64,000 nucleotides of DNA. It comes from Bacilli bacterium. Its GTDB lineage: Bacteria > Bacillota_I > Bacilli_A > RF39 > UBA660. The notes below the pieces were generated by a model. It did no database searches. It worked only from the letters and a program-made list of their open reading frames with translations, and was not told the DNA's origin. The position numbers and the translations under genes are program-made. Below are positions 4,775 to 63,950 of this stretch, one piece after another; position 1 is the first letter of the stretch, and each line of letters starts with the position of its first letter. The stretch covers positions 7,714 to 71,713 of the forward strand of contig JAFXTH010000006.1 of the NCBI GenBank assembly GCA_017525035.1, written 5' to 3'.

Positions 4775-4863
4775 AATACTTCTCCTTTAAGAATATTATA
4801 CTCCATATATAAATGTATTTCAATTCACTAATTATATTATGTTATAATATATTTGGTGATAAT

Positions 4864-5445
4864 ATGAAGTGCCCAAAGTGTAATGCCGAATATAAAACAA
4901 ATTTAAAATTTTGTCCTAAGTGTGGAGAAGTATTTGAATCAAATGATATTCAAATGTTTTCAGATATTTATAATTTAGAATTATTAGAAATGTATTATCC
5001 AAATAAAGAAGAAAAAATATATACTAAAAAGATTAATTATAAATATTTACTTCTTGGATATGTTTATGCAATATACAAAAGAATGTATAAACATGCAGCA
5101 ATTTCTATAATATTATTTGCACTAGGATTGTTAATATTATATTATTTTAAATTAATGGTAGTTTATAGTTTAGGTTTTTTGTTTTACTTTATATTTTTTA
5201 TTATGATATCACCTATAGTATTCTACATTTATAATGTATTCAATTTTGATCGTTTATTATTGTTGTATAGAAAACAGAGAATAAATAAAATAATTTCAAA
5301 AAATAGGGATAAGTCAAAAGAAGAAATAGAAAAAATAATAATTAAAGATAGTGTTAATGATAAATCTGGTGCAGTTATAACTGGAGTAATAAGTACTATT
5401 ATTTTGATTATCTATATTTGTTTATTTATTAGAAGATTTCTTTAA
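4864..5445 (+). CDS. zinc-ribbon membrane protein (DUF2628-like); paralog of 12119-12673
   Basis: MKCPKCNAEY..FCPKCG zinc ribbon followed by TM helices around an AIYKRMYKHA motif. The listed start 4813 overlaps the TGTTATAAT promoter (4840-4848), so ATG 4864 behind GGTGA is preferred. Confidence 0.65.
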   Translation: MKCPKCNAEYKTNLKFCPKCGEVFESNDIQMFSDIYNLELLEMYYPNKEEKIYTKKINYKYLLLGYVYAIYKRMYKHAAISIILFALGLLILYYFKLMVVYSLGFLFYFIFFIMISPIVFYIYNVFNFDRLLLLYRKQRINKIISKNRDKSKEEIEKIIIKDSVNDKSGAVITGVISTIILIIYICLFIRRFL

Positions 5446-6963: not shown

Positions 6964-8494
6964 TTTAATAAAAGGAGAATTTATAAAGAATTTCAAAATT
7001 AAAAAAATTATAATAGTCTTAATTATCTTATTACTTTCTATAGTTGGAAAAAATTATATAGATGAGTTGAAGATTACAAATGACAATAAAGCTATTTTAG
7101 AGCAAAGTGTTTCATATTTTAAAAATCAACTTGATTTTTACAAAAGTCATCCTGATACAAATCAAATAAAAAAGGAATGGTATTTATTCTCAAATCAAAA
7201 GAATTATGAAATGTATAATAAACTATTGAAAAGTGAAAAATACAATGATTTATCAACACAAAGCTGGCAACATGAATTAAGTAGACGTATTGTCAAAATT
7301 GATACATTAGTTTTTTGGATAGAAAAATATAAAGCAGATAAAAACGTAGACATTAGTTGGATAAATGAAGATTATGAGTTTACTTTGATGTATCAAACTT
7401 ATTTGGAAAAACTATCAAATATGAGTAATGAAGAATTAAGTCAAGAACAGGATAGGATGTTAAAGACTAAATCCGATTTTGAAAACCTTTTAAAAGATAA
7501 TAAATATTACAAGTATATCGAATATATATTAAATAATAATATAGACGATGCAATTTGGATATACGATATTTTTGAATTAGAAACTAAATATTATGAAGTA
7601 ATTATTGATAATAAAGTAGAGGAAGAAAGTTATTTAGTAAAAAATATTAATCAACTAAGAACATTAGGAGTCTTTAATTATGAAAATAAAAGAGCAAATG
7701 ATTTAAGAGATTCTATATTAAAAAAAGATAGAGAAATATTAAAATATTCAATAGATAAAGTTAAAAAGCAAGATATTTCATATGGAGCAATCAGCGTAGG
7801 TGCAGAATCGATTTATATTAGTACCAAATCTTGCGTTAATGGAATATTAGATTTATCAATTGTAATTATGATATTAGTTGTATTATTAGATGGTAATATT
7901 GTTAGCAAAGAGCATAATAAAGGTACTGAAAAATTATTACTAACAACCTCAAACAAGAGGTGGAAAATTCTACTTAGTAAATTTTTATATCTTATTTTAG
8001 AAACATATATTATCTGGTTTGTTGCATTAATACTTCTATTATTATTTGCAGGATTAAAATATGGATTTAATGATTTAATAACTCCAAAGATTTTATATCA
8101 AAACGGAAAAATTATTGAAGTAAATTATATTATTTATATAATAAAACAAATATTTTATTGCAGTATTCCAGTATTAGCTTTTATATCAATAGTTTTTATG
8201 ATTTCAACGATTACCTTAAATTCTGGACTTACAAATGGATTATGTATGATCTTTGCAATTATTTCACCTTTTATGTGGCATTTTATTTATAATTATCATT
8301 TATCGTTATTATCTTTTTTACCATTTCCTTATTTTATGTTCAGTAGTGTTATCACTGTAACTGAAGATTATTTAGGTTCTGTTGATGTTTCATATGCGTC
8401 AGAAGTATATGGTATTATAATTTCATTAGTTACTTTTGTTACATGTTATATAATATCAAATATAGTATTTATAAAAAGAGATGTTAAAAATTAA
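6950..8494 (+). CDS. ABC-2-type permease with large extracytoplasmic domain
   Basis: Overlaps the upstream ATPase gene by 14 nt. One N-terminal TM helix, an approximately 270-aa soluble region, then 5-6 C-terminal TM helices. Confidence 0.6.
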   Translation: MKIIDLIKGEFIKNFKIKKIIIVLIILLLSIVGKNYIDELKITNDNKAILEQSVSYFKNQLDFYKSHPDTNQIKKEWYLFSNQKNYEMYNKLLKSEKYNDLSTQSWQHELSRRIVKIDTLVFWIEKYKADKNVDISWINEDYEFTLMYQTYLEKLSNMSNEELSQEQDRMLKTKSDFENLLKDNKYYKYIEYILNNNIDDAIWIYDIFELETKYYEVIIDNKVEEESYLVKNINQLRTLGVFNYENKRANDLRDSILKKDREILKYSIDKVKKQDISYGAISVGAESIYISTKSCVNGILDLSIVIMILVVLLDGNIVSKEHNKGTEKLLLTTSNKRWKILLSKFLYLILETYIIWFVALILLLLFAGLKYGFNDLITPKILYQNGKIIEVNYIIYIIKQIFYCSIPVLAFISIVFMISTITLNSGLTNGLCMIFAIISPFMWHFIYNYHLSLLSFLPFPYFMFSSVITVTEDYLGSVDVSYASEVYGIIISLVTFVTCYIISNIVFIKRDVKN

Positions 8495-8555
8495 TTAAAA
8501 ATATTATAATTCTACTTTTAATAGGTGTTATTTAATAGTTTCTCGAATTAATATT

Positions 8556-8583
8556 ATTCACGAAAGGAGGAATATTCGTGAAT
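8556..8583 (+). promoter_or_regulatory. 9-bp perfect inverted repeat bracketing RBS and start codon
   Basis: ATTCACGAA-AGGAGGAATA-TTCGTGAAT. The SD sits in the loop and the GTG start (8578) in the 3' arm. Confidence 0.4.
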
Positions 8584-9330
8584 CAAGAAAAAATAGGAAG
8601 GTTTATAAGTGAAAGAAGAAAAATAAAAAAAATGACTCAAGCTGAACTTGGAGAAATACTTGGAGTAAGTGATAAATCAGTATCAAAATGGGAAACTGGA
8701 AAATGCATGCCAGATTTATCATTGTTTCCTGAATTGTGTAAAGTGCTTGATATTACAATTAATGATCTCATGAGTGGTGAAAAAGTAGACAACGAAAAAT
8801 ACATTAACACACTTGAAGTCAATATAGTTAAACTAGCAGATTCCTTAAAAAAGAAAAGAAAAAATAAAATTAAAATGTGCATTATTACTGCTATTATATT
8901 TTTATTTGCTATTTGGGGATATACTGCATATTATAATCTTGCAGAAGAAACTATATCATTTGATGTTGGAATGATGACTTGTAATGTATATAATAATGAA
9001 TTAACTTTTAGTATAAAAGGAACATCGATTTTAAATGAGCATTACACTATAAAAAAAGTAGATGGAAAAGATGTTTATATTTTTAATTGTACACTATTAA
9101 AAAAATATAAAGACTTTTATGCATGGGAATTAAAAAAAGGAATTAATTGTTTAGATGGAGACATTTATTGTAAACAAGGAACTCGTCATAATTTCAAGCT
9201 TAAAGATGACAATATTGATGTATATTATACAGAGTATTCTATAAGTAAATTTGAAAAAGCTACCAATGATGAATTAAAAAATCTTTTAGAAAAATCAAAC
9301 AAAATGGATTGCTCAAATGAAGAAGAATAA
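8578..9330 (+). CDS. membrane-anchored XRE-family HTH protein
   Basis: GTG start behind AAGGAGG. N-terminus KMTQAELGEILGVSDKSVSKWETGKCMPD, a single TM helix (MCIITAIIFLFAIWGYTAYY), then an approximately 130-aa outside domain. Confidence 0.75.
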   Translation: MNQEKIGRFISERRKIKKMTQAELGEILGVSDKSVSKWETGKCMPDLSLFPELCKVLDITINDLMSGEKVDNEKYINTLEVNIVKLADSLKKKRKNKIKMCIITAIIFLFAIWGYTAYYNLAEETISFDVGMMTCNVYNNELTFSIKGTSILNEHYTIKKVDGKDVYIFNCTLLKKYKDFYAWELKKGINCLDGDIYCKQGTRHNFKLKDDNIDVYYTEYSISKFEKATNDELKNLLEKSNKMDCSNEEE

Positions 9331-9360
9331 GAAAAAGATAAACATCTTTTTCTTTTTATT

Positions 9361-9388
9361 CACTTATTAATACAAATCTCATACACTA
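9361..9388 (+). promoter_or_regulatory. sigma-K/E-like promoter of the split amidase gene
   Basis: tCAC-N16-CATACACTA. CATACAnT matches the B. subtilis sigma-E -10 consensus, and AC-N16/17-CATAnnnTA matches the sigma-K consensus. AGGTGA RBS, ATG at 9404. Confidence 0.45.
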
Positions 9389-9403
9389 ATATAGGTGATT
9401 ATA

Positions 9404-9460
9404 ATGAATGAAAGAACTACTAAAAGAGTAGTAGTTGATGCAGGGCATGGAGGACACTGA
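9404..9460 (+). pseudogene. 5' fragment of split N-acetylmuramoyl-L-alanine amidase (codons 1-17, then element-derived His-stop)
   Basis: MNERTTKRVVVDAGHGG-H-stop. DAGHGG is the start of the Amidase_3 motif that continues at 20804. Confidence 0.85.
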
Positions 9461-9564
9461 AAAGCCCAAAATGATAAATGGCTACTGAATCGTGATGTAA
9501 AAGAAGGAATTTTTTAATTCTTACTTTTTTTATGTTATAATATTAATTATGATAGGAGAGTACT

Positions 9565-12090
9565 ATGTTAGAGTTAAAAAATGTTAATAAAATATATAAA
9601 TCTAAGAATGCTAATGATACTGAAGCTTTAAAGAATATCAACATATCTTTTAATAATGTTGGTATGACTTTTATTCTAGGAAAAAGTGGGTGTGGTAAAA
9701 GTACTCTTTTAAACATATTAGGTGGACTTGATATTCCAACAAGTGGAGAAATAGTATTTAAAGGTAAATCATTTAAGTTGTTTAAAAACAATGACTATGA
9801 TAGTTATCGTAATACTTCTGTTGGATTTGTTTTTCAAGAATACAATTTAATCGAAAAGTTTAATGTATTTGATAATGTAGCATATGCTTTAAAACTTCAA
9901 AACAAAAAAATTGATGATAATGTTGTACTAGATGTTTTAGATAAAGTAGGATTAAAAGATCTTGCAAAAAGGAAAGTAAATGAATTATCAGGAGGACAAA
10001 AACAAAGAGTAGCTATTGCTAGAGCTCTTGTTAAGAATCCAAGCATAATTTTAGCAGACGAACCAACAGGAAACTTAGATAGTGAGAGTTCAAAAATGAT
10101 TTTTGACATACTTAAAAATCTTTCACATGAAAGATTAGTAATAGTAGTATCTCATGATGAAGAAAGTGCTAGAACTTATGGAGATAGGATAATAAGCCTT
10201 CAAGATGGAGTAGTAATAAGTGATACTAATCCTATTATTAATCAAGAAGAAAACAATTATACTTTAAAGAAAAATCATTTACCATTTACTGAAGCATTTA
10301 GATTTGCATTAAAAAATATATTTGGTAGAAAAGGTAAGTTAATTTTATCTATAATATTAATATCTTTTGCATTATCATTCTTTGGCTTTGCAGTAATGCA
10401 AAACAAATTAAGAAGTACTAATGAAATAGAAAGAATAATAAATGAATATGATGTAAACTATATTGATATAGAAAAATTAGAGGAGAATTATAGTAATTGT
10501 ATTTTTAAAGGCTATTGGCGTAACTGCTACAATGAAGGAATTATAACAGAAAAAGAATATAATGATTTATCGCAAATAAATGAAACTCCTCTTACTATAA
10601 GATATAGATTTCAAGTATTAAATGCCTATATTAAGCCAATAGAATTATCAGATGAAGAACATAATAAAATGAGTTATTATTATTCAAATTATAAGTATAT
10701 GGGTGCTTTTTCTGAATTAAATAAAGAAGATTTTAATTTTAAATTAATTGGAAGTGTACCAAATACTTATGATGAAATAGTAATAATAAAACCAGTAGCA
10801 GATTACATAATAAAATATGGTGTATATCTAGATAATAATGAAGAATATAAACCACAAAGTTACGAAGAAATAATAAATGATAATAAATATTTAAAATTTG
10901 GTAATGGTAAAGTAAAAATATCAGGAATAATAGATGATGACTTGTCTATATTTGAACCTTTAAAAAATATTAGTAGTGATATAAGAGAAGATAGCTTATC
11001 ACTTGAAAATAAACGATTAATAGAAAAGTATAAATATAAATATCCAGTTCATTTTTATGCTTTAACTGATTTTAAAGATAATATAGAATTAAATGAAAAT
11101 AGTACAAGATATTTTAATATATTAGATAGTAATGATGAATTAAAAACTATAAAAGCTTTTGAACCAATGAAAGTATATACTGAAAATGGACTTATTGATA
11201 TGAAACAAATAGATAAAAGTGGCATAATAGTAAACGAAAACTATTTGGACATTATATCTAAAGGTGATTTCTCTAAAAAAATGAACGATTATATTATTAA
11301 AGGAAAAGATATTGATCCATCAAAATCAAGTGAAGATTATCGTTTAGAATTTGTAACAAATTATATTAAAGAAAATGATATTACTAATAAAATGGTAGCA
11401 TTCTATTTGGCTAAATTATATTCAAATGATGAAAATAATCAAGAAATGCACTTAAAAATATCTGGTGTCATTCTAGATAGTGAAGACTACTATGCTAGTA
11501 AAGAAATACTAAGTCAAGATAGTGATGAAAAATATAATATGTCTTTATATGTATTAACTAAAAATATTAAAGATTATAACAAATACTTTAACGAGTACCC
11601 AATAGATGGAGAACAATATATATCTACAAATGATTTTATTTATAGAATAGCTGAACATGAATTTACTATGAAAGTATTAGCTAAATATATTTTTATAATA
11701 GGTTTAGTATTCTCATTATTTGCTATACTTCAATTATTTAATTTTATAGGTTTATCAATAACTGATAATAAGAAAGAAATAGGAGTTTTAAGAGCTCTTG
11801 GAACAACAAAAAAAGATGTATCAAAAATATATTCAATACAAGGCCTTTTAATTGGATTATTATCATATATGTTATCAATAATTTTGATTATTATCTATTC
11901 TAAAGGAGAAAATGATATTTTTCTTTCAAATTATTTGAAAGAAGTATTTAATTTAGAATTATTTGGCATAACATTTAGTACACTTGCAATAGTATTTGTA
12001 TTCTTTGTAGTAGTTGTATTATTGTCAGTAATAAGTGTAACTTTTAAAATATCTAAGATGAGACCAATAGATGCAATTAATAATAAGTAA
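9565..12090 (+). CDS. fused ABC transporter ATPase-permease (MacB/FtsX type)
   Basis: Walker A GKSGCGKST, signature LSGGQKQRV, Walker B IILADEPTGNLD. Then a TM helix, an approximately 430-aa outside domain, and a C-terminal FtsX block (KKEIGVLRALGTTKKDV). TGTTATAAT promoter at 9533-9541. Confidence 0.85.
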   Translation: MLELKNVNKIYKSKNANDTEALKNINISFNNVGMTFILGKSGCGKSTLLNILGGLDIPTSGEIVFKGKSFKLFKNNDYDSYRNTSVGFVFQEYNLIEKFNVFDNVAYALKLQNKKIDDNVVLDVLDKVGLKDLAKRKVNELSGGQKQRVAIARALVKNPSIILADEPTGNLDSESSKMIFDILKNLSHERLVIVVSHDEESARTYGDRIISLQDGVVISDTNPIINQEENNYTLKKNHLPFTEAFRFALKNIFGRKGKLILSIILISFALSFFGFAVMQNKLRSTNEIERIINEYDVNYIDIEKLEENYSNCIFKGYWRNCYNEGIITEKEYNDLSQINETPLTIRYRFQVLNAYIKPIELSDEEHNKMSYYYSNYKYMGAFSELNKEDFNFKLIGSVPNTYDEIVIIKPVADYIIKYGVYLDNNEEYKPQSYEEIINDNKYLKFGNGKVKISGIIDDDLSIFEPLKNISSDIREDSLSLENKRLIEKYKYKYPVHFYALTDFKDNIELNENSTRYFNILDSNDELKTIKAFEPMKVYTENGLIDMKQIDKSGIIVNENYLDIISKGDFSKKMNDYIIKGKDIDPSKSSEDYRLEFVTNYIKENDITNKMVAFYLAKLYSNDENNQEMHLKISGVILDSEDYYASKEILSQDSDEKYNMSLYVLTKNIKDYNKYFNEYPIDGEQYISTNDFIYRIAEHEFTMKVLAKYIFIIGLVFSLFAILQLFNFIGLSITDNKKEIGVLRALGTTKKDVSKIYSIQGLLIGLLSYMLSIILIIIYSKGENDIFLSNYLKEVFNLELFGITFSTLAIVFVFFVVVVLLSVISVTFKISKMRPIDAINNK

Positions 12091-12117
12091 AAAACTATCT
12101 TGATGATAGTTTTTTTA
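12091..12117. terminator. bidirectional terminator
   Basis: AAAACTATC-TTGAT-GATAGTTTTTTT between convergent genes. Confidence 0.7.
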
Positions 12118-12118
12118 T

Positions 12119-12673
12119 TTATAAAAAGATAAATAATATTAATATTATAGAAACAAATATAGATATAATTAATAATTTATAATCAATTTTATTTTGTTCA
12201 ACAATTTTCTTATTAAGTTCTTCTTTACTACATTCCTTAGAATTATTTAATAATTTTCTATATTTAGACATTATATCTTTGTTAATCAAGCTACTTAATA
12301 ATACTGGATGGTATTTAACAAATAATACCACTAAGATTACTAATAATGGACCACTTAATGGAAATAGCCTTATATATAGTAATATTACCACATCCCATTT
12401 TTTTATACAGTATAATATGAACAGAAACCATAATAATAAATATATAGTTGTTCTAATCATTTTCTTAGAAATTGAATAAAACCAACCAAATAAAAAGTAT
12501 TCATCTTTAGGATTCCCATTGTTTTCAAAATTATATTGAATATACTGTTCTACATCATATGATGAATATTTTTCTGAAAATTCATCTACTATTTTTGAAT
12601 TAAATAAGTTACCACATCTAGGGCAAAAGTTTAATTGCCCTTTGAATTTAGAATTACATTTCGAACATATCAT
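12119..12673 (-). CDS. zinc-ribbon membrane protein (DUF2628-like); paralog of 4864-5445
   Basis: MICSKCNSKF..FCPRCG followed by TM helices. The listed start 12715 overlaps a TGGTATAAT promoter on the minus strand, so ATG 12673 behind GAAAGGA is preferred. Confidence 0.65.
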   Translation of the reverse strand: MICSKCNSKFKGQLNFCPRCGNLFNSKIVDEFSEKYSSYDVEQYIQYNFENNGNPKDEYFLFGWFYSISKKMIRTTIYLLLWFLFILYCIKKWDVVILLYIRLFPLSGPLLVILVVLFVKYHPVLLSSLINKDIMSKYRKLLNNSKECSKEELNKKIVEQNKIDYKLLIISIFVSIILILFIFL

Positions 12674-12741
12674 ATATATTTTCCTTTCATAAAAATTATA
12701 CCATAAAATAGACATTTTAGTTAAATAGTAAGTTACTAGCT

Positions 12742-12897
12742 AGCAAGCACTGAATTTGTCCGACAAAGTAAGTTTTCAGTAATTGCTAATAACAGCAAGC
12801 ACTGAATTTGTCCGACAAAGTAAGTTTTCAGTAATTGCTAATAACAGCAAGCACTGAATTTGTCCGACAAAGTAAGTTTTCAGTAATTGCTAATAAC
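12742..12897 (+). repeat. three perfect tandem copies of a 52-nt hairpin unit
   Basis: Unit AGCAAGCACTGAATTTGTCCGACAAAGTAAGTTTTCAGTAATTGCTAATAAC at 12742, 12794 and 12846. The arms AGCAAGCACTGAA / TTCAGTAATTGCT pair at 11 of 13 positions. Confidence 0.95.
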
Positions 12898-13022
12898 AGC
12901 AAGTACTGAATTTGTAATACAAACTCAATTTGGATTTTAATTCACTGCTTGCAAGCAAGCACTGAATTTATGTCCAAGTGCCACAAATCCAAATATTCAA
13001 TGGAGGTTAAACCCCAATCCCC
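12898..13022 (+). repeat. conserved hairpin-module element, copy R2
   Basis: About 90% identical to 5745-5870 (1 indel, about 11 substitutions). Seeds at 12898 and 12954. Confidence 0.6.
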
Positions 13023-13071
13023 AGCCCTTTTCTATTAATAAAAAATATGATACAATATTATCAAGTTAGAG

Positions 13072-13800
13072 GTGGTCAAAGTGATAGTAGTATCTTCTAT
13101 ATTAATTATACTTCTATTATCAATTTATCTTATTGAAAGAAAGCAATTAAAAAAGGAAACCAAAAAGAAATTATTACTAACATTGTTTGTAGTATTATTA
13201 ACTAATATTATATCTTTTAGCCCCATTGCATTAATACTTGTTTTAATAGTTATCATACTGATATATTCATGGAAAGAAATAAATGAAAAAACAAAGAAAA
13301 AAATTTACAAAATATGTGCTATTACTTTAGGAATCACATTATTATTTTTCATTTTAACACCTAGGTGGCTTTACTATCGAGTATTGTACCTTGATGATAG
13401 AGTAAAAATAACTGCTAAGATATATGTAGATGGAGAACAAATGAATATAGATGAAGATTTTGTTACTATAGGTGGTAAAGGAATAGGAAAAAAACACATC
13501 AGCAGTGGTGATGATGGAATAAAAATATCATTCAAGGGAAACGAATATGAAAATTATCATATTAATATGAAAATAGAACCATATCACAATGATTATTACA
13601 TCGACTTATTACTTCAACATTGGAATTGGTGGGATATAAATCGTATTGATGTAGTAATAAATATAGACACAAAAGAAAACACAATTAGTTATTCTGTAGA
13701 AAATAGATTTATTTCTGAAGAAAAAAATTATACAGAAGATGTATTAACATTGAGTGAAACAAAAGAATTATCAACAATTAATAAACTGTTTCTTGGGTAA
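13072..13800 (+). CDS. membrane protein, unknown function
   Basis: GTG start (13072 or 13081) behind AGAGGTGG. TGATACAAT extended -10 at about 13047-13055. 3-4 TM helices then an approximately 130-aa soluble domain. Confidence 0.55.
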   Translation: MVKVIVVSSILIILLLSIYLIERKQLKKETKKKLLLTLFVVLLTNIISFSPIALILVLIVIILIYSWKEINEKTKKKIYKICAITLGITLLFFILTPRWLYYRVLYLDDRVKITAKIYVDGEQMNIDEDFVTIGGKGIGKKHISSGDDGIKISFKGNEYENYHINMKIEPYHNDYYIDLLLQHWNWWDINRIDVVINIDTKENTISYSVENRFISEEKNYTEDVLTLSETKELSTINKLFLG

Positions 13801-13840
13801 CTAATTGAATTTAAGTAAAAAAATAAAGAGATAATTCTCT

Positions 13841-14608
13841 TTATTTTAATTGTTCTAATATTTCGATAATTTCATCTTTTGTGTAATTATAGCTTATAAA
13901 TTGATAGTAAACATTATCATATACAAAAGCTGCAGTCATTCTAGTTTTATCCCAATTATTTTCATAAATAACTGCCTTAGTATTAAGATTCTTTATTTCA
14001 TATACTAGATCTAATTCTTTTTCACCTGTTGCATCTTTTCCTTCTAAGAATGGATATATGTATCTTTCTTCAGCACACTTATTTAGAATAGATATATCTA
14101 CAGAAATAACTTTTCCTGTTTTATCTCCGTTCTTACCAAATTGACCATTAGTATTATCAATAAATTCAGACCACCACAAGTGGACTACTCCAATTTCTCC
14201 ATTACTATTTAAAGATGTACTATATCCTATTGATTTACTAGTTGTGTAATCATAGTCTAAGATATGGAAGCCAAGATTTTGTTCGACTTCATTGTGTGTC
14301 ATACTAACAAAATTTTCACTTTTTCTAGCATTAATGTTTATTTCTTTAAAATTTGCATTTTCCACAATATTTACTTTCGTTCCATCTTCAAACTCAACAC
14401 CTGTAGACCAACTTTTAAATAACTCTGCTATTTGTTTTGCATATACAATTGATATAGATATTGTAAATACTAATACTATTAAACCCAAAGAATAACCAAG
14501 TTTTTTATAATTATATTTTCTTTTGCTAATAGTTTTTTCCATTATTTTGTTTTCCAAATTATCACTTATTCTTATTGATTTGTAAGAATCACTAATTTTA
14601 TTATTCAT
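13841..14608 (-). CDS. putative anti-sigma factor (single-pass, DUF4367-like outside domain)
   Basis: Overlaps the stop of the upstream sigma gene by 8 nt. A short cytoplasmic N-terminus, one TM helix (LGYSLGLIVLVFTISISIVYA), then an approximately 190-aa outside domain. Confidence 0.5.
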   Translation of the reverse strand: MNNKISDSYKSIRISDNLENKIMEKTISKRKYNYKKLGYSLGLIVLVFTISISIVYAKQIAELFKSWSTGVEFEDGTKVNIVENANFKEININARKSENFVSMTHNEVEQNLGFHILDYDYTTSKSIGYSTSLNSNGEIGVVHLWWSEFIDNTNGQFGKNGDKTGKVISVDISILNKCAEERYIYPFLEGKDATGEKELDLVYEIKNLNTKAVIYENNWDKTRMTAAFVYDNVYYQFISYNYTKDEIIEILEQLK

Positions 14609-15080
14609 TATTTTCCTCCTTAATAATTTCCTTTAATTTTTTTCTTGCTCTATAAAGAATTGTTTGAATATTAGTTTCTGTTTTTTTCATTATACTTGAT
14701 ATTTCTCTAATTCTATAATTTTCATAATAATATAAAAAAATAACAAGTCTTTCATCTTTAGAGAGTTTATTTATTTCATCTAGAAGCTCACATTCTTTAT
14801 TATCAACTTTTAAAATATTTTCCTCTTTTTCTGTTAAAGTACATATCTTTCTTTTCCAAGATGATAAGAATATAGTTTTACAATTATTAATGGTTATTTT
14901 GATTAACCATTTTTTAATTTCAGTATCGTTACATTCAAGAATTTTCTTTTTTTTATATAGTTTTATGAAAACATTTTGAACTACATCATCAGAGTCTGCA
15001 ATATTTTTTGTATAACTATATGCTAATCTATAGATATCATTTTTATATAAATTAAAAATTCTTAAGAATTGTTCATCCAT
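14601..15080 (-). CDS. ECF-like sigma-70 family RNA polymerase sigma factor
   Basis: Region 2 (IYRLAYSYTKNIADSDDVVQNVFIKLY) and region 4 HTH (YENYRIREISSIMKKTETNIQTILYRARKKLK). ATG 15080 behind GGAGG is preferred over the listed 15128. Confidence 0.8.
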   Translation of the reverse strand: MDEQFLRIFNLYKNDIYRLAYSYTKNIADSDDVVQNVFIKLYKKKKILECNDTEIKKWLIKITINNCKTIFLSSWKRKICTLTEKEENILKVDNKECELLDEINKLSKDERLVIFLYYYENYRIREISSIMKKTETNIQTILYRARKKLKEIIKEENNE

Positions 15081-15270
15081 GATTATCCTCCATATATTGA
15101 AAAGCTTTTCACTATAATAACTATTCATTATTATAAAATATCACATAATATTTAAAAAAATATAAATAATAATACATTACAAATAAAAAACTACACTATT
15201 AGTACAATATTAGAACAAAAGAAATTTTGATTTCTTCTTTTAAATGTTATAATAAAAAAGGGGTGATTTT

Positions 15271-16698
15271 ATGGATGATGATTTTCTAATTGAATATATA
15301 GAACATGAAGTAGAAAATGGTTGTATCGATTTTAAAAAAGATATTTATGATTTTGATGTTCCAAAATGCAAGGAAGATTTTTTAGTCGATGTTATATCTT
15401 TTGCAAACAGTCATATTAATGGTGATAAATATATAATAACCGGAATTAAGCTACACAAAGATAATTCAAGAGACTTTAATGGAATAACTGAGTCCAAAAT
15501 TAAAGATGGTGCTGATTATCAGAGTATAGTAAATGATAATATAGAGCCAAATATAGTAGTTGATTTTAAAATAATTGAATATAAAAACAAAAAATATGGT
15601 ATTTTTAGAATTGGTAAAGAGAATCAAGATCAACCATACTTATTGAGTAAGCAATTTCTCAATTTGCAAAAGGGATTTATAAGAATAAGAAAAGGTCAAA
15701 AAAATGAAAACATTACAAGAAGAGATTTTGACTTATACTATAAAATTAAAGATTTAAATGATTATAGCAATATTCATATTAAAGGAATAGTTGATGGAAA
15801 AATAAGTGATAAATATCAAATAAATCAATACAATGATAATTTGAATTTTGAAAAGGCAAAGTCATTAATAAATGAAACTATAGTAGAAATAAAGAAAATT
15901 AAGTTAGCCAAAAGCTCTAATTTTTTGGCATTTGGGGATTTATTGTCACTGGATGAAAAAGAAATAGAAACAATTAAAACATATGCACAATTATATAGTA
16001 TAGTTTTAACTGATGATTTTTTTGATATAGGTAATATTAGGATTTTTACTGGTCCATATTCATCAGCAAGTTTATATGGAAGCAAAACTGAAGAAAAAAA
16101 ATATAAATTAATACGTAAGTTGATTACTATGATTTCAAGTTTTTTAGGATTTGATGAGTATTATAAAAAGATTAATTCTATTTATTACACAGAATTATTA
16201 ATAAAAAATGAAGGAAAAAAATTTGATGAAGATATTGAAGTAACATTAAAAATTGAGAAAAGTAAATTATTAAATTATTCTAAATTTCCTGTACCACCAG
16301 AGTCAATAATAGAAAAAATAATAGATGATAAATTATTAGATAAACATTTGAATAATCAAAAGGTAAATGGTGTTAATAATTATACTTGTAAAATTCCGAG
16401 AATATTTCCAACTTATCCAATGAAAATAAAATTGCCAATTGGATATTCGAAACCAGATTATAAAGAATATGTAGATTACTATATAAACTATGTTCAAACA
16501 ATTGCAGATTATGATGTAAGTGAGGATGAAGATTATTATTATTTAAAATATAATCAAAGGGAGATAAAACCTAATGAATTAATACATTTACCAGCTAGGA
16601 TTATTTTTATTGATAAACCTAATGAAATAGAATATGAAATTAAAACAAAATATAATTCAAATATAAATAAAGGGAAAATATCATTGATTGAAAAATAA
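15271..16698 (+). CDS. AlbA_2/Schlafen-like (divergent AAA-type DNA/RNA-binding) N-domain protein with unknown C-terminal half
   Basis: N-terminus EHEVENGCIDFKKDIY...DVISFANSHINGDKYIITGIK...YGIFRIG..QPYLL resembles the PF04326 pattern (E..LEFK, then aNt.GG.l.iGv). The C-terminal 270 aa have no recognisable motif. Confidence 0.45.
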   Translation: MDDDFLIEYIEHEVENGCIDFKKDIYDFDVPKCKEDFLVDVISFANSHINGDKYIITGIKLHKDNSRDFNGITESKIKDGADYQSIVNDNIEPNIVVDFKIIEYKNKKYGIFRIGKENQDQPYLLSKQFLNLQKGFIRIRKGQKNENITRRDFDLYYKIKDLNDYSNIHIKGIVDGKISDKYQINQYNDNLNFEKAKSLINETIVEIKKIKLAKSSNFLAFGDLLSLDEKEIETIKTYAQLYSIVLTDDFFDIGNIRIFTGPYSSASLYGSKTEEKKYKLIRKLITMISSFLGFDEYYKKINSIYYTELLIKNEGKKFDEDIEVTLKIEKSKLLNYSKFPVPPESIIEKIIDDKLLDKHLNNQKVNGVNNYTCKIPRIFPTYPMKIKLPIGYSKPDYKEYVDYYINYVQTIADYDVSEDEDYYYLKYNQREIKPNELIHLPARIIFIDKPNEIEYEIKTKYNSNINKGKISLIEK

Positions 16699-16782
16699 AA
16701 ATTATATAATTAAAAAAAAGATTAGAAATCAATGTTTCTAATCATTTTTAATTTGTTATAATATTTATCCAAATTCTCTTTT

Positions 16783-17190
16783 TTATTTAAAGTAATCCTT
16801 GATTGCTGCTTTAATAGTTTTTTGATCATTTTTACTTTGGGATTTAAACCATTTTGTATTGGTTATGTCATTACTTGCAAAATAACTAGAGAATAATTTT
16901 TTATAAGTGTTCTGCCTTGCCATATATTCTTCCATTTCTGGATCTATGGTAGTTTCTATATCTTCTTTAGAAAAACCTGCAATAGTCATTAATTCCCTTA
17001 AATCTAAGTTAAGTACATTTGCCATCTTTTTAAGAGTTAAGGCATTTGTACTTTTTCTTTCTCCATTTTCCAATCTAGCTATGGTATTATTACCAACTCC
17101 TATTTGCCTAGCTAATTCTCTTTGTGATATTCCTTTCTTTTCTCTAGCTTCTTTAATAATATCAGCTAATTCTCTTTTATTATTTGTCAA
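16783..17190 (-). CDS. XRE/cI-like HTH repressor
   Basis: GISQRELARQIGVGNNTIARLENGERKST, a classic HTH_3. It is the second gene of a leftward operon facing a divergent promoter region. Confidence 0.8.
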   Translation of the reverse strand: MTNNKRELADIIKEAREKKGISQRELARQIGVGNNTIARLENGERKSTNALTLKKMANVLNLDLRELMTIAGFSKEDIETTIDPEMEEYMARQNTYKKLFSSYFASNDITNTKWFKSQSKNDQKTIKAAIKDYFK

Positions 17191-17201
17191 ATTATCACCT
17201 T

Positions 17202-17930
17202 CTAATTTGTTTTCCTTTTATAATTATTTTTTAGTTGCTTTTCTATTTTCTTAGATAAACTTTTAACTAATTGTTCATAGTTTTTAGATAAATATAATTC
17301 ATTATCAATTATACTCAATCCAATTATTGCTTTCTGTGTATATGCTCTTTCAAATACTATCCTTTTTTCACTTATTAATTCTTTTAATACTTGCCCACCA
17401 TCATCCGTACAAATGACAAATGTTATTTCAAGTCCTCCAACTTTTGTTTCTTTCATAATGCTATTGTAAAAATCTACCATTTTATCGATAGCTACTTCCT
17501 TATTTTTTGAATTAAATGATTTTGTATGATGAGTAACTATAATACTATAACAATCATTGTGATACGTTTTAATGTATAAAGATAAATCTTTATCTGATTT
17601 TTTTAATTCAAAGTTATGTTGTTTCATTGATTTACTAAAATCTTTAAAAAAATGCTCGTATGTCTTATAGGGACTTACATAAACATCTGGTTGAACAATC
17701 TTTTTCTTTTCTTTTTTAACTATAATATTCTTTTTTTCAGCGATACACATTAAAATTATCAAAAATAAACTTGCAATCCAAGCTACAATTCCAAAAATAG
17801 TAGGGATTAAATCTGAATAATGAAATATTAGACAACCCAAGCCAATTATAAAAAACAGAGACCAACTAATAATAACAATGTAAAAAAATAGATAATATAA
17901 TATTTTCAATAATAGCGTTTTTTTATCCAT
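17202..17930 (-). CDS. membrane protein, unknown function (co-operonic with the repressor)
   Basis: Three N-terminal TM helices then an approximately 150-aa cytoplasmic domain. No HExxH, so it is not an ImmA-type protease. Confidence 0.55.
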   Translation of the reverse strand: MDKKTLLLKILYYLFFYIVIISWSLFFIIGLGCLIFHYSDLIPTIFGIVAWIASLFLIILMCIAEKKNIIVKKEKKKIVQPDVYVSPYKTYEHFFKDFSKSMKQHNFELKKSDKDLSLYIKTYHNDCYSIIVTHHTKSFNSKNKEVAIDKMVDFYNSIMKETKVGGLEITFVICTDDGGQVLKELISEKRIVFERAYTQKAIIGLSIIDNELYLSKNYEQLVKSLSKKIEKQLKNNYKRKTN

Positions 17931-17941
17931 CTCATTATCAC

Positions 17942-18040
17942 CACAATTATAGTATTACACAAATTGTGTCCTTTTGCAACAAAAATGTTGACTTTTATTT
18001 TCTATCCATGTTATATTGTAGTAAAGATATTGTGTCTTTA
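17942..18040. promoter_or_regulatory. divergent promoter/operator region (lysogeny-switch-like)
   Basis: Half-sites CACAAT (17942), CACAA-A-TTGTG (17958-17968), and ATTGTGTC at 17963 and 18029. Rightward promoter: TTGACT (17988-17993), 17-nt spacer, TTATAT (18011-18016). Leftward TATAAT on the minus strand at 17946-17951. Confidence 0.55.
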
Positions 18041-18071
18041 GGAAACAATACAACAAATAAGGAGGGGAAAT

Positions 18072-18335
18072 ATGCATGAAAAGAAAGAACTAGATATGAG
18101 TAATCATAGGATATGGAAAGATAAGAATATTAAACCTGAATGTAAAAGAATATTTGCTTATCTATATTCAAAAGGATTTAATGTATCAGATTTCTATTTA
18201 AATGTGGGAGACATACAACAAGTAGTAAGAATTAAAAATGTTGGATTAAGAAAGAATCTAAGTACATTAGAAGATAATAAGTATCTAATATTTAGAGAAT
18301 ATGATACAGGAATGTATGAAATAAGTATTTGTTAG
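18072..18335 (+). CDS. small winged-helix-like protein
   Basis: AAGGAGGGG RBS. 87 aa. CKRIFAYLYSKGF...IQQVVRIKNVGLRKNLSTLEDNKYL resembles phage/plasmid wHTH replication or regulatory proteins. Confidence 0.5.
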   Translation: MHEKKELDMSNHRIWKDKNIKPECKRIFAYLYSKGFNVSDFYLNVGDIQQVVRIKNVGLRKNLSTLEDNKYLIFREYDTGMYEISIC

Positions 18336-18457
18336 ATTGGTAAAACACTAATAAATAATGGTACAGTAAATGTTTTGAGATTTATGTTAGTACCTTTTCT
18401 ATTAGATATAGAAAAAACATCGGTAAGAAAAGTCCTAATTTAATAATAAGGAGAATT

Positions 18458-18928
18458 ATTATATTAAATGGTCAATTTATCATTACTCCTAGAATATTAT
18501 TTAATGATGAGAACTTATCAAGAACTGAAATAGATGTTCTTAGTCTCATTATTTCACTTACCTTAAAAAAAGGATTTTGTTTTGCGAGTAATGACTATTT
18601 AAAAAAATATATTAATACATCAGAAAGAACAATTACTAGTTCATTGTCAAAATTAAAACAATTAAAATATATAATAATTAAAACAAATAACAATAAAAGA
18701 AGAATATATCTTAATAGAGATAAGATACCAGCAGAAATTTCTAAATGGATAGCAAGAAATTGCAATGGAGAGGTAGAAAAAACTTGCGACTATAAAATAA
18801 AGAATAAAAATAAAAAAGAGAATAAAAACATTAATCCATATTGGTTAGATCATCCTGAAATGATTAAAGAACCGAGCATTACTGAAGAAGAAAGAAAAGA
18901 ATTGGAAGACTTACTTAATAATTTCTAA
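18458..18928 (+). CDS. HTH (replisome-organizer/DnaD-N-like) protein with non-canonical or damaged start
   Basis: The frame is open from 18359. The conserved-looking N-terminus GQFIITPRILFNDENLSRTEIDVLSLIISL...ERTITSSLSKLKQLKYI lies upstream of the first ATG (18644). AAGGAG at 18448 is followed only by ATT/ATA codons in frame, and ATG 18468 is out of frame by 1 nt. Confidence 0.45.
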   Translation: MILNGQFIITPRILFNDENLSRTEIDVLSLIISLTLKKGFCFASNDYLKKYINTSERTITSSLSKLKQLKYIIIKTNNNKRRIYLNRDKIPAEISKWIARNCNGEVEKTCDYKIKNKNKKENKNINPYWLDHPEMIKEPSITEEERKELEDLLNNF

Positions 18929-18948
18929 TAAAAAGGGGGAATGATTAA

Positions 18949-19089
18949 ATGGAGGTAGTATATAATGTAAAAAATAAATATAAGACAAATGAATTTAGTT
19001 CAACTGATGACATGAAAAAAATAATTAATATTAAACTAATAAATGTCATTATGAAATTAGAAAAACAAAAATATCTATTAAACAATTAA
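18949..19089 (+). CDS. 46-aa ORF directly upstream of the recombinase (speculative directionality-factor candidate)
   Basis: AAAAGGGGGA RBS 8 nt upstream. MEVVYNVKNKYKTNEFSSTDDMKKIINIKLINVIMKLEKQKYLLNN. No homology can be asserted. Confidence 0.25.
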   Translation: MEVVYNVKNKYKTNEFSSTDDMKKIINIKLINVIMKLEKQKYLLNN

Positions 19090-19094
19090 CGAAA

Positions 19095-19114
19095 ATATGT
19101 TATATATAACATAT
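19095..19114. promoter_or_regulatory. perfect 20-bp palindrome upstream of recombinase gene
   Basis: ATATGTTATA|TATAACATAT, 35 nt upstream of the recombinase start. Confidence 0.5.
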
Positions 19115-19149
19115 CATCGATTAAGTAGCCATTTATCCGAAATGGAGGA

Positions 19150-20757
19150 ATGGCTATGGTAGAAAAGGTAGGTGTATATTGTAGATTATCTGATGAAGAT
19201 AGAGATAAAGTAAATAAAACTGATGATAGTGATAGCATAATAAATCAAAGAAGTATGTGTTTAAAATATGCCAATCAAAATGGTTGGGATGTAGTAGATA
19301 TATATTCTGATGATGACTTTTCTGGAGCTGGAACTTATAGACCAGATTTTGAAAGACTTATTAAAGATTGTGAAAGTGGAAAAATTAACCTTGTTCTTTG
19401 TAAATCTCAATCAAGATTTTCAAGAGATATGGAAGTAATAGAAAGATACCTTCATAATAAGTTCATAGAGTGGGGTGTAAGATTCGTTAGTATCGTAGAT
19501 AATGCAGATACTAGCATTGAATCAAACAAGAAATCTAGACAGATAAATGGGCTTATAAACGAGTGGTATTTAGATGACTTATCACAAAATATTAAAAAGT
19601 CATTAAAGAACAAAAGAGAAGATGGTTTGTTTATGGGTAGCTTTGCTTCTTATGGATATGAAAGAGATGAAGAAGATTATCATAAACTAATAATTGATCC
19701 AGTAGCAGCAGAAGTTGTTAGAAAGATATTTCAAATGTATGCAGAAGGATATGGATATCACAGAATATGTGTTTATTTAAACAATAATAAGATTCCACCA
19801 AGATCCATTTATAAAAAACAAAAAGGTAGTAAATTTGTTTGTGGAAGTTGTGATTATGATAATGTTATGTGGAATCCAGATACAATTGCTCAAATATTAA
19901 GAAATGAAGTATATATTGGTAATTTAGTTCAAGGAAAAACAACACATGTTAGTTATAAAAATCATAAAAAGAAAAATGTTCCTCAAAAAGAATGGTGCAA
20001 GATAGAAAATACCCATGAACCAATTATTGATATGGAAACCTGGAATAAGGTCCAAGAAATACTAAATAATCACTTTAAGACAACCAAGAATAAGCAAATG
20101 ACTTATTTCACAAAAAAAGTGTATTGCAGTTGTTGTGGTAAAGCATTTATGAGAAATGTTTATAGTGTTAAATCAGAGAAAACTGGAAAAAGAGCATATA
20201 TGCAATGTAAAGGAAATAAAAAGTATCATATTTGCTCAAATAATAAAGCAATTAGAATGGATAAACTCGAAGAAATAGTATTAAAAGAAATAAATGATTT
20301 ATTAAAGAATTACTATGATAAGAATAATTTAAAAGATCTCTATGAAAAAAGATGTTTACAAGAAACAAATAATATTGATTCAATAAAAAATCTAGAAAAA
20401 GAAAAAGAAGAACTAAATAAAAAGATTTCTACTAATAAAAACTATTATAGAAATCTATTTGAAGAAAAAGTAAAAGGTGTAATTTCTGAAGATATGTTTC
20501 AAATGATGTCGAAAGACTATTTCAATGAAATCGAAAATATGATGATTAGAATTGAAGTAATTGATAATGAGATAAAAGAGATAAAAAAAGACAAAATTGA
20601 TAAGAAACAAGCTACAGATATATTAAATAAATATAGACACATTAAAAAGTTGAATAAAGTAATTCTAGATGAATTTATTGATAAGATTTTTATAGGAGAA
20701 ATTGATAAAAACAATAATACAAGAGATATAGAAATAATATGGAACTTTGAGTTCTAA
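19150..20757 (+). CDS. large serine recombinase
   Basis: N-terminal resolvase domain with VGVYCRLSDEDRD (catalytic Ser), DSDSIINQR and SQSRFSRD. Recombinase domain, then Cys-rich zinc ribbon (CSCCGK...CKGNKKYHICSN), then a long coiled-coil C-terminus. The start may be ATG 19156 behind GGAGG. Confidence 0.92.
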   Translation: MAMVEKVGVYCRLSDEDRDKVNKTDDSDSIINQRSMCLKYANQNGWDVVDIYSDDDFSGAGTYRPDFERLIKDCESGKINLVLCKSQSRFSRDMEVIERYLHNKFIEWGVRFVSIVDNADTSIESNKKSRQINGLINEWYLDDLSQNIKKSLKNKREDGLFMGSFASYGYERDEEDYHKLIIDPVAAEVVRKIFQMYAEGYGYHRICVYLNNNKIPPRSIYKKQKGSKFVCGSCDYDNVMWNPDTIAQILRNEVYIGNLVQGKTTHVSYKNHKKKNVPQKEWCKIENTHEPIIDMETWNKVQEILNNHFKTTKNKQMTYFTKKVYCSCCGKAFMRNVYSVKSEKTGKRAYMQCKGNKKYHICSNNKAIRMDKLEEIVLKEINDLLKNYYDKNNLKDLYEKRCLQETNNIDSIKNLEKEKEELNKKISTNKNYYRNLFEEKVKGVISEDMFQMMSKDYFNEIENMMIRIEVIDNEIKEIKKDKIDKKQATDILNKYRHIKKLNKVILDEFIDKIFIGEIDKNNNTRDIEIIWNFEF

Positions 20758-20794
20758 ATACTAATAATAAATTTGGACTTTTCCGATGCCCCGA

Positions 20795-22000
20795 CATGGA
20801 GGAAGCGATCCAGGTGCTGTTAATGGAAATATAAAAGAAAAAGATTTTAACTTACAAGCAGCAAATTATATATATGAAAGATTAAATGAATTAGGAGTTC
20901 CAGTAGCAATTACTAGAATAGATGATGAAGATATTGGAAGAAGTGAAAGACTAAGAAGAATGGTTAATTCATTTGGTAATGATAAAGATGTGATAATTCT
21001 TTCTAATCATATTAACGCAGGAGGTGGAGAAGGAGCAGAAGTAGTTTATTCTTTAAGAAATGATGACACACTTTCTAAAATGATACTTGATGAAATAGGA
21101 AATGCTGGTCAAATAGAAAGAAAAGTTTATCAAAGAAGATTACCAGAAAATCCAAGTAAAGATTATTATTACATAATGCGTGAGACTCCAAATACTGAAG
21201 CAGTATTAATTGAATATGGCTTTATTGATAACCCAAGAGATTTGTATAAACTTCAAAATAATTTATATGATTATGCTGAAGGTGTTGTTAAAGCTGTTAC
21301 TAATTATATAGGTGTACCTTATATTCCAAAGGAAGAAACAATTGTAGATACAAATACTTATATTGTTAAAAGTGGAGATACACTTTATTCAATTGCAAGA
21401 GCTTATAACACTACGGTGGATGAATTAAAAAGAATTAATAGGTTATCTAATAATGTTTTATCTATTGGGCAAACTTTATTGATACCGGAAACTGAAGAAG
21501 AACTTCAAAGTGATTATTTAATATATACTGTTAAGAAGGGTGATACATTATATTCAATTGCAAGAGCATTTAACGTAACTGTGGATGAGATAATTACGCT
21601 AAACAGATTAAATAGTATTGGCTTATCAATTGGTCAACAATTGTTAATCCCAGAAAATGGAATTCAAATAATCGGAGTTGTTGATTACACAATAAAACCT
21701 GGTGACAGTTTATGGAAAATTGCTAATAGATGTGGTGCAACTGTTGATGACATTGTTAAACTAAACAACCTAGATTCAACAATTATTTATCCAGGACAAA
21801 TAATAAAGTTATCTGAGCCATGCGCAGCAAAACAAAATTACGAAGAATATGAAACTTACATAGTTAAAAGAGGCGATACACTTTATTCAATTTCAAAAAT
21901 GTTTAACACCACTCCAAGTGTGATAAAAGAATTAAATAATTTAAATACTGATATGCTTCAAATAAATCAGATGCTTATATTACCAAAAGAAAATGTCTAA
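20795..22000 (+). pseudogene. 3' part of split N-acetylmuramoyl-L-alanine amidase (Amidase_3 + 4 LysM)
   Basis: HGGSDPGAVNGNIKEKDFNL...LSNHINAGGGEGAEVVY (Amidase_3 zinc ligands), followed by four LysM repeats (Y.VK.GDTLYSIA..). The listed ATG 20786 lies in element DNA and has no SD. Confidence 0.88.
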
Positions 22001-58052: not shown

Positions 58053-58106
58053 TTAAAGTATAAATTGTTTAAAAAATCACATCCTATAAATGTAGGAGGT
58101 GAAACA

Positions 58107-58319
58107 ATGAAAAAAGGACAAAAGAAAAAAACTAGCTCCACAAGAAATTCTACTGCTAAAAAGAATACAACTGATAATATGAAGTATGAAATAGCAAATG
58201 AATTTGGTGTTAGTTTAGGTCCAAATTCTACTTCTCGTGCCAATGGTTCCGTTGGTGGTGAAATTACTAAAAGATTAGTAAATCGAGGAAAAGGTGGAAG
58301 TGCAAAAAGAAATTCCTAA
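58107..58319 (+). CDS. alpha/beta-type small acid-soluble spore protein
   Basis: [33 protein letters not shown] is the SASP alpha/beta signature. ATG 58107 behind TAGGAGGTGA is preferred. Confidence 0.9.
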
Positions 58320-63557: not shown

Positions 63558-63950
63558 TTGAAATATCAATTAATAAATAAAAATAAATTTATAATATATC
63601 TTAATTCATCATATATGTGTTTAAATAAAGAAAACTTATATGATAGTATTAAAAATATTTTAATAAAAGTAAGAAAGAGATATGCATATGATATATATGG
63701 CTATTATGATGTTAATATTTATGAAATAAAATGTATAACAACAGTAATTGAGTTTATAAAAAAAGATCAAGATGATTATTTTAAAAACAATGTTGATTTA
63801 AAGATAAACTACATTAATAAAGATTATAAAATAAGAATAGATGACTATACTTTACTTAATAATTTTTTAATATCTTCAAATGACATTAAAAATGGTGATA
63901 TTATTAAGATATGTGAACATTATTCGATAGAAAATCTTAATTTACAATAA
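63558..63950 (+). CDS. hypothetical protein (TTG start)
   Basis: TAGGTGG RBS then TTG. 130 aa, Asn/Ile/Lys-rich. Confidence 0.4.
   Translation: MKYQLINKNKFIIYLNSSYMCLNKENLYDSIKNILIKVRKRYAYDIYGYYDVNIYEIKCITTVIEFIKKDQDDYFKNNVDLKINYINKDYKIRIDDYTLLNNFLISSNDIKNGDIIKICEHYSIENLNLQ

Follow-up and report, generated by a model that had tools for sequence, protein, structure and literature searches.

We find that an amidase gene in a 64,000-nt stretch of Bacilli DNA (contig JAFXTH010000006.1, assembly GCA_017525035.1; hereafter the window) is split inside a catalytic motif by an 11,349-bp element that encodes a large serine recombinase, and we propose, by analogy with known sporulation elements and with a probability that we put at about one in two, that the gene is reconstituted through excision of this element as a programmed step of sporulation. 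The gene is preceded by a putative mother-cell promoter whose position is conserved in divergent orthologues, excision in silico restores the open reading frame (ORF), and elements of the same general type recur in the amidase genes of related species. We infer the use of the promoter by sigma-K, the expression of the gene in the mother cell, and the timing and cell type of excision. The features of the split locus, in window coordinates, are as follows.

9329..9354, + strand: perfect 11-bp hairpin with a T-rich tail, folding at -12.2 kcal/mol (z = -4.68)
9360..9388, + strand: predicted sigma-K-type promoter, with the -35 element tCAC at 9360-9363 (AC at 9362-9363), a 16-nt spacer at 9364-9379 and the -10 element CATACACTA at 9380-9388
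9393..9406, + strand: Shine-Dalgarno sequence AGGTGA (9393-9398) and start codon ATG (9404-9406), read from the sequence
9404..9454, + strand: amidase 5' fragment, codons 1-17 (MNERTTKRVVVDAGHGG); in the split state the frame continues to TGA at 9458-9460
9446..9454: attL copy of the 9-bp core CATGGAGGA
9455..20803: intervening element, 11,349 bp, no phage structural genes, interrupting the amidase after codon 17
20795..20803: attR copy of the 9-bp core CATGGAGGA
20804..22000, + strand: amidase 3' fragment, with the remainder of Amidase_3 and four LysM domains; the ORF is called from an element-derived ATG at 20786 (MPRHGG...)
Junction sequences: attL GGGCATGGAGGACACTG; attR CCCGACATGGAGGAAGCG; predicted attB GGGCATGGAGGAAGCG; predicted attP CCCGACATGGAGGACACTG

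Joining the two cores in silico restores the ORF and produces VVVDAGHGGSDPGAV, which contains the canonical zinc-ligand motif (GHGG). This joined stretch is identical to that of an intact allele from the same species (P0001), and the whole proteins are 99% identical. A BLASTN comparison with two conspecific contigs that carry the intact gene (L001 and L002, whose flanks are 96-99% identical in nucleotide sequence) placed the breakpoints exactly at the 9-bp core, showing that the element is inserted as a discrete unit and that the exact empty site occurs in the population. The element was found on 11 contigs from several samples (ERZ28653687/SAMN15830042 and SRR31077519 are examples of samples with the split allele), and the sources of the intact and split alleles are separate samples or studies. 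The right end of the element (20786-20803) supplies an in-frame ATG (MPR-HGG...), and gene callers consequently annotate a near-full-length protein of 404 amino acids (aa) (P0005, P0041, and P0072), which hides the split in databases. Translation of a truncated but functional enzyme from this ATG was considered and is unlikely because no Shine-Dalgarno sequence precedes the ATG, the enzyme would lack its first beta strand, and other elements inserted at the same site do not have the ATG.

An earlier note on this DNA, made from the sequence alone, had reported a sigma-E/K-like motif upstream of ATG 9404, and the motif is present as described, with tCAC, 16 nt, and CATACACTA. To distinguish between the two sigma factors we used the consensus sequences given for Clostridium difficile (PMC3789822), according to which the sigma-K -35 element is AC in both C. 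difficile and Bacillus subtilis whereas that of sigma-E is ATA. The AC at 9362-9363, followed after 16 nt by CATACACTA at 9380-9388, fits the sigma-K form (AC, 16-17 nt, CATAnnnTA). For sigma-E we looked for the -35 element ATA (kmATATT) 16-18 nt upstream of CATAcAnT; the -10 element also fits the sigma-E form CATACAnT, but no ATA precedes it at the right spacing and the conserved -35 element is AC, so that the sigma-K part of the earlier reading stood and the sigma-E part did not. Four nucleotides separate CATACACTA from AGGTGA, and five separate AGGTGA from ATG 9404. Transcription starts of C. difficile sigma-K promoters map 5-7 nt past the 9-mer (PMC3789822 Table S7), and by analogy the amidase transcript is predicted to start at about 9393-9395, on the first bases of AGGTGA, with a leader of about 11 nt. 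A simple promoter scan found no sigma-70-like site on the + strand upstream of the amidase. The hairpin at 9329-9354, which fails the G+C rule of a simple terminator scan, is probably the terminator of the upstream helix-turn-helix (HTH) gene (8578-9330) and would thus isolate the amidase promoter.

Within the window the motif is not enriched, as AC-N16-17-CATANNNTA has 7 matches on both strands against 8.4 +/- 2.9 expected at 27% G+C, and a match in a single sequence is therefore not significant. We therefore turned to orthologues and compared loci from 80 species representatives with orthologues that are 46-86% identical, together with the two conspecific contigs with the intact gene. Of 59 orthologue upstream regions, 53 carry CATAnnnTA at a distance of 24-30 nt from the start codon, and 40 carry the whole motif of AC, spacer, and CATAnnnTA. 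When only distinct sequences were retained (orthologues 46-99% identical), the motif was present in 37 of 49 amidase upstream regions and at the same position in only 2 of 933 other ORFs preceded by a Shine-Dalgarno sequence (Fisher p ~4e-54, a value that is indicative only because the sequences are related); this control set comprised all such ORFs of at least 80 aa in all the locus DNA compared. The flanks of the amidase orthologues are otherwise unalignable. An alignment of 42 distinct orthologue sequences anchored on CATAnnnT revealed an A at -18 in 37 and a C at -17 in 33, and the last A of the 9-mer was invariant (42/42) though the alignment did not demand an A there. The resulting logo is t(a/c)AC-N16-CATAnnnTA, with t(a/c)AC(a) as the -35 element and a non-conserved spacer. 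Mapped C. difficile sigma-K promoters read gTAACA at -35 (PMC3789822 Table S7), and the resemblance of the conserved element to these promoters favors sigma-K and not sigma-E.

The comparison with a conspecific strain is consistent with this result. The spacer differs completely between that strain and the window because a 250-aa HTH/membrane gene (8578-9330), absent from L001 and L002, lies upstream in the window, and AC and CATACACTA are nevertheless still 16 nt apart. In a split locus from another species (L032) the promoter CAC-N16-CATAAAATA has been kept, and the motif is absent from two homologues with a different N-terminal region that appears PG_binding-like by eye (L049 and L061). The conservation of position over very divergent orthologues supports the view that the motif acts as a functional mother-cell promoter, and we consider it highly probable, on sequence grounds, that this promoter is of the sigma-K/mother-cell type. 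Were the CATAnnnTA block instead the site of another regulator or a translation-control element, the amidase would be expressed vegetatively or by read-through. The unusually tight position of the -10 element, 4 nt from the Shine-Dalgarno sequence, and the lack of over-representation in the window would suit such a reading, but we regard it as very improbable given that AC is separately conserved exactly 16-17 nt upstream across a non-conserved spacer, that the fit to mapped sigma-K promoters with starts 5-7 nt after the 9-mer is exact, that cwlJ-like genes carry the same motif, and that the terminator-like hairpin upstream speaks against read-through. As a separate observation, TTATTCAC occurs at both ends of the HTH-gene region, at 8556-8563 and 9356-9363.

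The cwlJ-like genes, which encode proteins of 140-141 aa, are the only other gene family that carries the motif, and it is present in 24 of the 31 upstream regions of this family; the genes have the layout TAACA-N16-CATAnnTTA-N4-AGGTGA. The protein, a CwlJ-type spore cortex hydrolase, reaches 59 bits on Pfam Hydrolase_2, and along its whole length it has 45-48% identity to what we take to be the sequence of B. subtilis CwlJ. Its gene is located within ~10 kb of the amidase gene in 38 loci, and in the three loci checked it lies tail-to-tail right after the amidase:

L062, 9085-9510, - strand: cwlJ-like gene
L007, 11407-11832, - strand: cwlJ-like gene
L010, 11250-11675, - strand: cwlJ-like gene

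This adjacency, together with the common promoter type, raises the possibility that the amidase has a role in germination or cortex hydrolysis.

The window contains another ORF of related layout at 63558-63950, which encodes 130 aa and has no Pfam or NCBIfam match. In its upstream region (from 63490), a terminator-like hairpin is followed by AC-N16-CATAAAATA-N4-AGGTGG. If the split amidase, which is too short for this count, is set aside, this is the sole window ORF with the compact sigma-K-type layout, and by its upstream sequence it may be a late mother-cell gene.

The reconstituted amidase begins with MNERTTKRVVVDAGHGG, enters the Amidase_3 domain at about residue 8, and ends in four C-terminal LysM repeats. 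This early start of the catalytic domain leaves no room for a signal peptide, in agreement with the earlier note. The protein scores 79.5 bits against the NCBIfam CwlD model (cut-off 221) and reaches no NCBIfam equivalog, and its catalytic domain is ~30-33% identical to what we presume to be the CwlC sequence. CwlC also lacks a signal peptide and has a C-terminal wall-binding repeat domain. The two proteins are alike in layout, with an N-terminal Amidase_3 domain, no signal peptide, and C-terminal wall-binding repeats, but the repeats are four LysM repeats here and SPOR repeats in CwlC. In combining an Amidase_3 enzyme with sigma-K-type control, which is a prediction in the present case, the amidase also resembles CwlC and CwlH of B. 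subtilis and CD1898 and CD2184 of C. difficile; the latter two are sigma-K-dependent amidases that have been proposed to lyse the mother cell (PMC3789822). We suggest that the window gene would encode a cytoplasmic peptidoglycan amidase that is transcribed late in the mother cell by a sigma-K-type RNA polymerase from AC-N16-CATACACTA. It could be functionally analogous to CwlC in mother-cell lysis or, alternatively, a lytic enzyme associated with the coat or cortex and acting together with its frequent neighbor CwlJ.

A programme of this kind presupposes a spore-forming host, and the earlier note had named two spore-former markers in the window, both of which were confirmed by domain searches. 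The first is an alpha/beta-type small acid-soluble spore protein (SASP) that scores 52.5 bits on Pfam PF00269 (cut-off 22), and the second is a YetF/DUF421 protein at 43171-43878 (130.7 bits, Pfam).

58058..58319, + strand: alpha/beta-type SASP gene (58107-58319) with a predicted sigma-G-type promoter (GTATA, 17 nt, CATCCTA) at 58058-58086

The GTATA-N17-CATCCTA sequence fits what we take to be the sigma-G consensus, and 8 nt beyond this promoter lies AGGAGGTGA. Among the related loci we found CwlD-like genes that score 200 bits against TIGR02883, just below its cut-off, and a SigG equivalog (374.7 bits, cut-off 372), with a SigG-like gene in L031. TBLASTN searches of the loci with SigE, SigK, Spo0A, SpoIIID, and SpoIVA, using what we presume to be the B. 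subtilis sequences, identified only the SigG-like gene in L031; matches to Spo0A were rejected as generic receiver domains. The organism is probably an AT-rich (27% G+C) RF39-like member of the Bacilli, and from the sequence it looks like a spore former that has retained the endospore programme. One of its relatives (L039, CAG-460), on which the placement in or near RF39 is based, belongs to order RF39, family UBA660 (PMC13155120), and RF39 has been predicted by gene content to include spore formers with spoIIGA (PMC10868615).

The amidase ORF is interrupted inside the zinc-ligand motif GHGG, and recombination between the two 9-bp cores would excise the element and leave an exactly restored ORF. 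In the mechanism that we propose, which is modeled on skin, SPbeta, vfbin, vrin, and gin, excision would take place in the terminally differentiated mother cell, the amidase would then be made when required, and the spore genome would retain the element. The likeness to skin in sigK (SpoIVCA in B. subtilis; CD1231 with the directionality factor CD1234 in C. difficile) extends to a large-serine-recombinase element with an incomplete phage gene set that splits a mother-cell gene (predicted as such from its promoter in the present case), to precise excision that restores the ORF (in silico here), and to insertion sites that vary between species. Unlike in skin, the target is a late effector enzyme and not a sigma factor, and no sigma-E-controlled recombinase or directionality factor is recognisable. 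SPbeta in spsM (SprA/SprB), vfbin in spoVFB, vrin in spoVR, and gin in gerE are likewise intervening elements in sigma-K/E-dependent mother-cell genes (Abe et al.; PMC4191935, PMC5499854, PMC5595907), and gin is, like the window element, not a prophage. The present case differs from these elements in having two sites in one gene, which are used by diverse recombinase lineages and sometimes both at once, and in a host that belongs to an uncultured, genome-reduced lineage. The earlier note had suggested that the locus belongs to this class; the split by a large-serine-recombinase element, the ORF restored by excision in silico, and the empty site give this partial support, but no sigma-E/K promoter was found on the recombinase. 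In full-text literature searches and in the Abe papers searched, we found no report of an amidase as the target of a sporulation intervening element.

The heterocyst rearrangements of Anabaena (fdxN element/XisF, nifD, and hupL) offer a more distant parallel, as developmental excision in a terminally differentiated cell, which is only proposed here. XisF is a large serine recombinase, and the window recombinase is weakly similar to XisF and CcrB (108 bits on the XisF model, cut-off 375). In Anabaena heterocysts several elements are to be removed during differentiation. The phylum and the developmental programme are different, and the likeness does not go beyond the recombinase superfamily.

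Insertion into the amidase gene is recurrent. The window site (site 1) is also occupied in other species, represented by L032, L069, L009, L024, P0041, and P0072. The site-1 recombinases of L032 and L069 are 71% and 59% identical to that of the window, respectively, and these two elements have in common with the window element the recombinase, a 46-aa ORF upstream of it, and the position beside the 3' fragment. A second site (site 2) lies within NAGG|GEGAE, the motif of the zinc-ligand Glu, at codons 89-91 and is occupied in ~27 of the 80 species representatives. Site-2 recombinases are 46-98% identical among themselves and 30-35% identical to the window recombinase. In all, about a third of the related species have such elements in the amidase gene, and the targets are the two catalytic-motif sites. 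Joining at the 13-bp site-2 core in L069 restores ...LSNHINAGGGEGAEVVYPL..., and L009 and L069 have elements at both sites, leaving the amidase in three pieces so that two excisions would be needed. The loci concerned are as follows.

L005, L006, L009, L027, L057, L059-L072, L074-L079, L081, and L082: site-2 loci, with 3' fragments at ~10001 in most
L069: recombinase 1 at 533-2137; middle fragment at 2160-2405; recombinase 2 at 7665-9191; 3' fragment from 9907
L009: 274-513; from 9185

The 3' fragment is open at normal length to its normal stop in 22 of 22 split loci measured; in six more the measurement ended at an element-derived stop, and in two the contig end came first. The 5' fragments that were seen, in five loci and in L032, are open frames, and at site 1 the promoter and 5' fragment have been kept in both cases that could be examined. 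Split and intact alleles have practically equal ratios of nonsynonymous to synonymous substitution rates (dN/dS), 0.12 and 0.14, respectively.

One locus (L008) has a complete amidase gene (10001-11392) and, in addition, an extra 5' fragment at 2429-2695 that ends at site 2. The -10 element of the extra fragment is without the first C (tATAttaTA), and the fragment may be a remnant of an earlier split copy.

The window element itself encodes a recombinase module, a divergent repressor-like gene, and cargo that also includes proteins of no assigned family. Its annotated genes are listed here.

9565-12090: cargo, ABC-FtsX fusion
14601-15128, - strand: cargo, extracytoplasmic function (ECF) sigma factor
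15271-16698: cargo, Schlafen/AlbA_2 protein
16783..17190, - strand: XRE-type repressor-like gene, divergent from the operon whose last gene encodes the recombinase (Pfam HTH_3; PHROG transcriptional repressor families)
18469..18928, + strand: HTH_36/DnaD_N-like gene, start codon uncertain, directly upstream of the recombinase module
18949..19089, + strand: 46-aa ORF just upstream of the recombinase, no family match, conserved in site-1 elements (window, L032, and L069)
19156..20757, + strand: large serine recombinase with Resolvase, Recombinase, Zn_ribbon_recom, and DUF4368 domains (PHROG integrase, 372 bits)

The PHROG matches in the element are limited to the integrase, the XRE repressor, and the DnaD_N/HTH_36-like (replication-initiator-like) protein, and include no structural or lysis genes; the closest relative of the recombinase in IMG/VR is only 38% identical. 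On both counts a prophage origin of the element is unsupported. An HTH_36/DnaD_N-like gene lies directly upstream of the recombinase in site-1 and site-2 elements alike (e.g., L067, 4323-4805; L071, 2774-3256), and this gene and the 46-aa ORF are candidates for regulators or directionality factors, the assignment of the ORF at 18949-19089 as a directionality factor being speculative. Between the XRE repressor gene and the divergent recombinase operon lies a sigma-A-like TTGACT-N17-TATATT. In SPbeta the recombinase is constitutive and control is exerted through a small directionality factor (Abe et al.; PMC4191935, PMC5499854, PMC5595907).

This arrangement would equally well suit the alternative raised in the earlier note, a reversible switch of the active-lysogeny type that is unrelated to sporulation, in which the XRE repressor would control the operon of the HTH_36 gene, the 46-aa ORF, and the recombinase, and a stress or host signal would lead to excision and turn the amidase on in a subpopulation. 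The divergent repressor-like gene, with a sigma-A-like promoter in the interval before the recombinase operon, and the conservation of the module in site-1 and site-2 elements speak for such a switch. The amidase, however, has a promoter of the sigma-K type and not of the sigma-A type, so that restoration outside sporulation would not give expression, and the element has no replication or packaging genes with which to persist after excision. Active lysogeny involves a functional or recent prophage, which an element with no structural or lysis genes does not represent. We consider a switch of this kind improbable.

Several observations weigh against programmed reconstitution during sporulation. 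The sigma-E/K motif is absent before the recombinase, the 46-aa ORF, and any other gene of the window element, and from 14 site-2 elements; our search of the site-1 and site-2 elements gave only chance matches inside coding regions, although a promoter of relaxed or unfamiliar form may be present. The recombinase module appears, from its upstream sequence, to be driven by the sigma-A-like promoter opposite the XRE repressor gene, as in an ordinary inducible mobile element. The attP junction has 0 matches in metagenome contigs and the exact reconstituted allele is absent from the protein collection, results that are each uninformative either way. Only 4 nt lie between the end of the amidase -10 element and the Shine-Dalgarno sequence, and the leader would accordingly be unusually short; the same compact layout is found at the cwlJ-like genes and at the ORF at 63558-63950, and it therefore appears to be a habit of the lineage. 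Finally, a comparison that was meant to date the insertions found recombinase identity to be uncorrelated with that of the host amidases (Spearman -0.03). In L006 and L068, for example, recombinase identity is 98% and amidase identity 75%, and hosts with amidases that are 96% identical have recombinases that are only 53% identical. This lack of correlation indicates that the elements are horizontally mobile and that the insertions are possibly recent, in which case the arguments from intact fragments and from dN/dS lose most of their force and selection after insertion is unproven.

The main rival to programmed reconstitution is plain insertional inactivation, in which a mobile element uses the conserved GHGG/GGGEG coding sequence of a dispensable amidase as its attachment site, carriers lack the enzyme, and excision is rare and serves transfer. 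The mobility of the elements between species (the recombinase/amidase identities of 98%/75% and 53%/96%) is what would be expected in this case, as is the choice of the most conserved catalytic motifs as both targets. Amidase paralogues nearby in L018, L026, L032, L034, and L053, the lack of an internal sporulation promoter in the elements, and the failure to find the excision product, either as attP in metagenome contigs or as the allele in the protein collection, agree with it as well. On the other hand, about a third of the species representatives have an insertion and two have two, yet no decayed 3' fragment was found among the 22 measured, and both examinable site-1 cases still have the promoter and 5' fragment. 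Moreover, all the characterised recombinase elements that interrupt sporulation genes expressed in the mother cell are excised in the course of sporulation (PMC4191935, PMC5595907, PMC5025042). We judge plain inactivation to be rather unlikely.

A broader version of programmed reconstitution can be put forward more tentatively. In the RF39-like clade the sigma-K-dependent amidase gene may be a preferred safe harbour for a guild of mobile recombinase elements, which would occupy two sites in about a third of the species, and the three-piece genes would then need two mother-cell excisions. If so, no other developmental gene of spore formers would be known to be interrupted as often as the amidase gene, and the rearrangement would be the first of its kind beyond the cultured Bacillus and Clostridium lineages. 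Should programmed reconstitution of the window gene be correct, a late lytic enzyme would join the sporulation genes that are rebuilt by programmed excision (sigK, spoVFB, spoVR, spsM, and gerE), and the phenomenon would extend to uncultured, genome-reduced gut Bacilli, in which sporulation is only a gene-content prediction. The putative promoters of the sigma-K type (amidase and cwlJ) and of the sigma-G type (SASP) are separate evidence, at the level of sequence, that the compartment-specific sigma cascade is still at work in the lineage. The two sites and many recombinase lineages form a natural data set with which to test mother-cell-only genes as safe integration sites, and the recurrent insertions supply many natural attB/attP pairs for large serine recombinases.

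Parts of the element cargo have weak paralogues (~30% identity) among window genes outside the element. The zinc-ribbon membrane protein encoded at 12119-12715 (- strand) is related in this way to the gene just outside at 4813-5445, and the FtsX-type permease at 9565-12090 to the gene at 59-1222.

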